Below are positions 3,550 through 3,624 of a stretch of DNA of 10,132 nt, piece after piece. The number at the start of each line of letters is the position of its first letter. The stretch's first letter is position 1. Origin of the DNA: a virus (Duplodnaviria; Heunggongvirae; Uroviricota; Caudoviricetes). Location of the stretch: IMG/VR virus record IMGVR_UViG_2630968500_000005, one strand, 5' to 3'. The notes under the pieces were generated by a model. That model worked only from the letters and a program-made list of their open reading frames with translations. It had not been told where the DNA came from and ran no database searches. The translations under genes and the position numbers were made by a program.

Positions 3550-3624
3550 GATTGCACCTTAATTAGAATAATTCGCATCGTGTTTGAACGGAATTTAACA
3601 CTAGTCACTTGTTAAGGATTACCA
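3550..3624. promoter_or_regulatory. divergent intergenic control region between prt (minus) and darB (plus)
   Basis: 75-bp AT-rich spacer separating two divergent start codons. Contains the palindrome ACTAGT (3600-3605) within AACACTAGTCACTTG, with CACT direct repeats at 3599-3602 and 3606-3609. SD AAGGA at 3614-3618 serves darB. No convincing sigma70 -35/-10 pair was found by eye; a phage late-type promoter is possible but unverified. Confidence 0.3.

Follow-up and report, generated by a model that had tools for sequence, protein, structure and literature searches.

The prt/darB gap and its genetic setting

The stretch of DNA analyzed here (10,132 nucleotides; henceforth termed the window) aligns without gaps over positions 1–9870 to positions 20860–10991 of phage P1, with 98.2% identity. 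The region around the gap between prt and darB shares 99.4–99.6% identity with P1 and relatives (99.4% with P1 itself). Judged by these alignments, the window is P1-type phage-plasmid DNA. Its plus strand carries lyz' (1–536), lydD (529–783), lydE (633–848), and the antirestriction gene darB (3625–10098 in the window, with an ATG at 3625; P1 counterpart 10469–17236). On the minus strand lie the portal protein gene prt (1840–3549) and the head protease gene pro (828–1847), the first and second genes of the operon served by the late promoter LPpro. The prt gene, present in both the open reading frame list and the annotation, starts with a TTG at 3549–3547, and the window Prt protein is 98.9–99.3% identical to Prt/ProA of P1 and P7. 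As prt and darB diverge, 75 bp (3550–3624) between them remain noncoding. A sequence-only reading of the window had described this segment as noncoding DNA between divergent genes and as the only sizeable noncoding stretch, and both statements are borne out by the open reading frame list and the P1 annotation: because the remaining genes abut or overlap, the sole other intergenic sequence is the window's final 34 bases. Direct reading of the sequence places a Shine-Dalgarno motif ahead of each flanking gene, i.e., AAGGTG (3555–3560, minus strand) 5 nt ahead of the prt TTG, with AAGGT invariant in relatives, and AAGGA (3614–3618, plus strand) 6 nt ahead of the darB ATG, with AAGGAT invariant in three lineages.

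Homology to P1 ends at 9870, and from 9871 onward the window consists of foreign DNA. The darB reading frame ends at 10098 and encodes 2157 amino acids versus 2255 in P1. The tail (9871–10132) is mobile-element DNA with matches in thousands of plasmids. Its sole full-length match is the 148-kb plasmid NZ_CP060066.1 of Escherichia coli strain G5, which is 100% identical at the right end of the window and in which the truncated darB gives way to an IS3-family transposase and IncA/C-type genes, with MobI(A/C) next door. The foreign tail and the shortened darB suggest that the window derives from a P1-type phage-plasmid whose darB is disrupted. A separate case of darB loss is found in the P1-like E. 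albertii plasmid p06-3542 (retrieved segment 1501–2208), which has lost most of the gene and kept the intergenic promoter region; its darB remnant comprises the first ~140 bp, including the operator-like site described below, and is followed by lxc, a gene for a 'modulator protein'.

Architecture and conservation of the late promoter LPpro

The GenBank records of P1 (NC_005856) and P7 annotate a 'late promoter LPpro' at exactly these gap bases, on the prt strand and 43 bp upstream of the morphogenesis operon prt-pro. Its 19 bases (AAGTGACTAGTGTTAAATT) are identical in the window and in P1 (NC_005856, 17251–17269), and P7 likewise has the same bases at the same position between prt (proA) and darB, in the same orientation. 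A single base in the prt leader differs from P1: position 3575 is C on the prt strand, as in P7, against T in P1. Read on the minus strand, the site starts with a conserved AAC flank (3611–3613) directly upstream of the box AAGTGACTA (3602–3610), an imperfect 9-bp inverted repeat that both records label '-22 region of LPpro' and that is the putative binding site of the activator Lpa. A 4-bp spacer, GTGT (3598–3601), invariant in all seven aligned relatives, joins the box to the -10 hexamer TAAATT (3592–3597), which is a minus_10_signal in the P1 record and fits TANNNT. Standard sigma70 geometry would place the start of the prt-pro transcript at an A seven bases past the hexamer (3585), yielding a 36-nt leader. 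The minus-strand reading of 3592–3613, AAC-AAGTGACTA-GTGT-TAAATT, is thus very probably LPpro, the P1 late promoter of the prt-pro operon, a site that is already known and annotated in GenBank. The sequence-only reading had anticipated such a promoter, an Lpa-type element with a -10 hexamer and an inverted repeat near -22 in place of a -35, and its description matches the LPpro of the P1 and P7 records.

As a reference set, we extracted all 11 annotated late promoters from the P1 record. Their common pattern is (A/G)AC-AAGTNACTT-N4-TANNNT, and LPs, LPdar, LPsit, LP23, LP26, LPlyz, LPmat, and LPpac share with LPpro the AAC or GAC flank, the AAGTNACTT box, the 4-bp spacer, and the TANNNT hexamer. 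The LPpro box matches this consensus, obtained from the remaining P1 late promoters, at eight of nine positions. It is imperfect at its last base, which departs from the ...CTT end of the consensus with an A instead of a T, as is also the case in LPsit and LP26. The 4-bp spacing between box and -10 occurs in 10 of the 11 annotated promoters and the AAC or GAC flank in 8 of the 10 that are canonically spaced (LPhot left out). TANNNT fits LPpro and most other P1 late promoters, with TAAATT itself found in LPpro only. In common with the other P1 late promoters, LPpro has no -35 element: the hexamers 16–18 bp upstream of its -10 (ATCCTT, AATCCT, and TAATCC) share at most two of six positions with TTGACA, and a sigma70 scan returned no match on the prt strand at LPpro. 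The earlier statement that the gap holds no obvious sigma70 promoter was also fair, since just two candidates face darB. One is a weak CTGCCA-18-AATAAT (9 of 12 positions), the only plus-strand match of the scan. The other is PdarB (3539–3569, plus strand), predicted in the P1 record, in which a weak -35 (TTGTCT, 3539–3544) is separated by 19 bp from the -10 TAGAAT (3564–3569), a hexamer that is invariant in three lineages but overlaps the prt leader.

The comparison with annotated P1 late promoters, which the sequence-only reading had proposed as a check, was extended from identity over the 19 bases to matrix scores of 21.8–23.4 bits. A leave-one-out matrix, trained on the remaining P1 late promoters, gave LPpro 23.4 bits; the runner-up in the window reached 9.85 bits and is the same palindrome read backwards. 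When this matrix was run over the complete P1 genome, eight of its nine training promoters scored 21.6–26.2 bits, i.e., in the same range as LPpro, and the ninth, the atypical LPpmgL, scored 10.6 bits. A matrix derived from only the eight canonical promoters gave LPpro 21.8 bits, composed of 4.4 for the flank, 13.6 for the box, 1.5 for the spacer, and 2.3 for the -10. The composite AAGTNACTW-N4-TANNNT occurs once in the window (3592–3610, minus strand) and in none of 200 shuffles. The genome scan additionally returned two unannotated matches on the P1 minus strand: AACAAGTGACTGGTGATAACCT (76780–76801; 19.6 bits) lies inside gene 7, and AACAAAGGACTTCATTGATAAT (63962–63983; 13.1 bits) lies just upstream of ppfA. 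The ppfA operon (upfC to upfA) shows late kinetics and carries no annotated late promoter.

Alignment was possible for three lineages: the P1 type, a set of Salmonella plasmids, and the Cronobacter phage JK004, whose Prt is 82% identical. Across these, a near-invariant block spans the darB start codon, the box, the spacer, and the -10. The box reads AAGTGAC(T/C)A, with AAGTGACCA in JK004 and the Salmonella plasmids, and the -10 reads TA(A/C)ATT, the TACATT of the Salmonella lineage still fitting TANNNT. The discriminator downstream of the -10 and the first darB codons have strongly diverged, such that box, spacer, and -10 are more conserved than their surroundings in JK004 and the Salmonella plasmids. 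No LPpro-like site was found upstream of the portal gene in D6-type phages (Prt 50% identical), which indicates that the prt/LPpro layout is restricted to the P1 lineage. Gene order differs both in these phages and in related prophages of Pantoea and Enterobacter (Prt ~50% identical), which likewise lack a P1-type box ahead of the portal gene, and neither group was informative for footprinting. Among 490 P1-like plasmids, 310 are identical to the window over 3583–3627 and about one third differ from it by one base. The changes in the two sampled variants, an additional A immediately behind the -10 (TAAATT-T) in one and G3586T in the other, both fall in the discriminator/start-site region. A further block, AATTATTCTAAT (3560–3571, prt-strand reading), is invariant in the three lineages next to a discriminator that varies, the sole exception being a single T-to-C substitution in the E. 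albertii plasmid pEA4_97. It holds the predicted PdarB -10 (TAGAAT, plus strand) and also sits in the prt leader, and either role may be under selection.

The feature that had caught the eye in the sequence-only reading was a different one, the perfect palindrome ACTAGT with its flanking CACT repeats. These are present, ACTAGT at 3600–3605 on both strands and CACT at 3599–3602 and 3606–3609, but the functional inverted repeat is AAGTGACTA. ACTAGT consists of the last four box bases and two spacer bases, and it is not the conserved element, since both diverged lineages (JK004 and the Salmonella plasmids) have ACCAGT instead. The window contains one copy of ACTAGT against 0.88 expected, and at least one copy occurs in 116 of 200 shuffles, so the palindrome alone is no more than expected by chance. 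By arithmetic estimate, any 75 bp should hold about one 6-bp palindrome, and the gap has a second one, TAATTA (3560–3565). Neither ACTAGT nor the CACT repeats are elements of their own: they arise from the box half-site and the spacer, the CACT copies being these two read on the opposite strand. One could still argue that ACTAGT or nearby short inverted repeats form an independent element, either a protein-binding palindrome or an RNA hairpin, given that the palindrome is perfect and that 6-bp inverted arms flank it (TTAACA, 3595–3600, and TGTTAA, 3610–3615). We consider this hardly credible, with a count at chance level and with the palindrome absent from relatives that retain LPpro. Predicted RNA folding of either strand was no better than for shuffled sequences (z = -0.01 to +0.57) and Rfam gave no match at E-values up to 1, and an RNA element or hairpin in the gap was rejected on these results, as was ACTAGT as a meaningful palindrome on the basis of its chance frequency and its loss in relatives that keep the promoter.

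Late expression of prt-pro and the C1 operator-like site

Several phages use a factor of their own that compensates for a missing -35 in transcription by the host RNA polymerase, as at the Ogr-dependent late promoters of P2, the C-dependent promoters of Mu, and the gp55/gp33 late promoters of T4. In T4 the sigma factor is replaced, and in P2 and Mu the activator sites lie further upstream. P1 late promoters differ from these three systems in combining sigma70 with Lpa and host SspA at a site centered at -22. Lpa is a sequence-specific DNA-binding activator (PMC1891329; PMC8201110) that binds the 9-bp repeat at 11 P1 late promoters (PMC10695390), and SspA acts as a co-activator with DNA-bound Lpa and contacts RNA polymerase (PMC1891329; PMC8201110). 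By analogy, Lpa (gp10) would bind the inverted repeat near -22 (3602–3610) and thereby substitute for the missing -35 contact, SspA would bridge DNA-bound Lpa and the sigma70 RNA polymerase, and sigma70 would read the -10 TAAATT. Transcription would then start near 3585 and proceed leftward through a 36-nt leader with the AAGGTG ribosome-binding site into prt and pro. Most likely, LPpro in this way drives prt-pro late in infection via Lpa, SspA, and sigma70 RNA polymerase, where the start site is drawn from sigma70 geometry and the dependence on Lpa and SspA from the literature on P1 late promoters.

Published expression data are in line with this assignment. In RNA-seq of P1vir infection, prt and pro group with the late genes, their log fold changes rising between 10 and 30 min from 4.7 to 11.2 for prt and from 4.5 to 10.8 for pro (PMC8201110). 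These increases, 6.5 and 6.3 log units, respectively, are inside the late-class range. As its library kit the study names TruSeq v2 only (PMC8201110). The data consist of per-gene values and are unstranded, and therefore give no start-site mapping. TruSeq v2 is presumably not a strand-specific kit. A literature search found no transcription start-site map of P1.

A second regulatory feature lies ~70 bp upstream of LPpro, within the 5' end of darB. The minus-strand sequence ATTGCCCTAATGTATTT at 3679–3695 (darB codons 19–24) resembles an operator of the C1 repressor and matches the asymmetric 17-bp ATTGCTCTAATAAATTT at 14 of 17 positions. With a matrix trained on 14 annotated P1 operators, which themselves score 19.5–28.4 bits, we obtained 17.0 bits for this site, a value below the range of annotated operators yet clearly above background, the runner-up in the window reaching 7.2 bits. 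The P7 record labels the equivalent of 3679–3695 as a hypothetical Op(pro), possibly controlling proA and proB; in the P1 record it is unannotated. The orthologous site in JK004 and the Salmonella plasmids is near-consensus (ATTGCTCTAATAAATCT or a version ending in ...CG) though the surrounding codons are ~50% diverged, which suggests selection on the DNA site.

This site raises the alternative that the gap is mainly under ordinary sigma70/C1 control, with darB transcribed from PdarB, prt transcribed from an early promoter under the control of the operator, and the late-promoter motif incidental. The P7 suggestion that the operator-like site controls proA and proB, the conservation of that site upstream of LPpro, the prediction of PdarB in the P1 record, and the invariance of its -10 TAGAAT in three lineages would all fit such a scheme. 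However, no prt-facing sigma70-like promoter was found near the operator, PdarB combines a 19-bp spacer with a weak -35, and the late-promoter motif is both conserved and far beyond chance. The kinetics of prt, pro, and darB are moreover late, not early, unlike those of C1-controlled genes. Late kinetics together with the lack of a prt-facing sigma70 promoter make a purely sigma70/C1-controlled region very unlikely, and the reading of the gap as harboring the Lpa-type promoter LPpro is strongly preferred.

Transcription of darB

The sequence-only reading had allowed for one or two late promoters in the gap. The one facing prt stands; a second one facing darB is unsupported, because the hexamer at the canonical spacing is AGGATT. 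Precedent for a divergent pair exists in P1, where LP26 and LPpmgL, like LPpro and darB, have a palindromic box between divergent genes, and the P1 record annotates a single box shared by both promoters. The reverse reads of the two sites are identical at 15 of 19 positions: TAGTCACTT-GTTA-AGGATT on the darB side resembles TAGTCATTT-GTTG-AATATT of LPpmgL. They differ in that LPpmgL has its AATATT at 4-bp spacing and a leader of ~80 nt, whereas the darB side has AGGATT and 14 bases from box to ATG.

The kinetics of darB count in favor of a shared box. Its values in P1vir RNA-seq are 4.83 at 10 min and 11.67 at 30 min (PMC8201110), a rise of 6.84 log units that compares with 6.78 ± 1.0 in the late class (37 genes) and 3.70 ± 1.34 in the early class (29 genes). 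None of the 29 early genes reaches the darB value, and the outcome in a dksA host is the same. In these unstranded data darB is thus indistinguishable in kinetics from Lpa-dependent genes, and its annotated promoter is a predicted sigma70 promoter only. Such kinetics alone are no proof of an Lpa promoter, since other genes without annotated late promoters (upfC–upfA and the sim genes) also look late. If the palindromic -22 box were shared, it would drive darB rightward in the manner of the LP26/LPpmgL pair. The second position of AGGATT at the canonical 4-bp spacing is a critical one and is occupied by G, the hexamer is AGGATC in the two diverged lineages, and the canonical matrix gives the read toward darB -3.4 bits. 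On the darB strand, neither a NANNNT hexamer at 4 bp nor room for a leader was found within the 14 bases between box and ATG. At 3-bp spacing, AAGGAT (3614–3619) does fit NANNNT and is invariant in the three lineages, but it is also a well-placed darB ribosome-binding site, a coincidence that already explains its conservation. Lying 5 bp before the ATG, it would moreover direct a start at or after 3625 and thereby at best a leaderless transcript, and the next methionine of darB (codon 6) is not conserved. We therefore regard a second, darB-facing late promoter as unlikely, and in its specific form, in which darB would be an Lpa-dependent late gene fired from the LPpro -22 box via the off-register AAGGAT to give a leaderless or near-leaderless mRNA, as similarly doubtful. 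LPpro as a single late promoter facing prt remains the favored reading.

Other sources of late darB RNA were also considered. Where lydD and lydE and the convergent pro end, a hairpin with seven G-C pairs (CCCCGGC-AGCC-GCCGGGG, 797–824, plus strand) is followed by TTATTTTT. It is likely an intrinsic terminator of the LPlyz transcript and may act in both directions. Read-through from LPlyz as a source of late darB RNA is disfavored by this seven-G-C-pair hairpin and its T-run, a point that speaks for a shared box. The sequence ahead of the PdarB -10 was likewise rejected as a late-promoter box, as ATTGCACCT matches only four of nine positions and varies in the Salmonella lineage. Were LPpro and PdarB both to hold, their predicted starts (3585 leftward and ~3576 rightward) would make the two transcripts overlap by ~10 bp. 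Each -10 would then lie inside the leader of the other in a face-to-face arrangement, so that mutual interference is predicted if both predictions hold.

LPpro is a textbook P1 regulatory site that is already in GenBank, and its recovery here carries little weight as a discovery. The bases that bear the signal are those of the box AAGTGACTA, not the eye-catching ACTAGT. A modest point of interest lies on the other side of the gap, where darB behaves as a late gene without an assigned late promoter and carries a conserved C1-operator-like site in its first codons. If the shared box were real, the gap would be the second shared-box divergent late promoter in P1, and the catalogue of P1 late promoters would be incomplete. 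The unannotated matrix matches in gene 7 and upstream of ppfA, together with the genes that show late kinetics without late promoters, point in the same direction.
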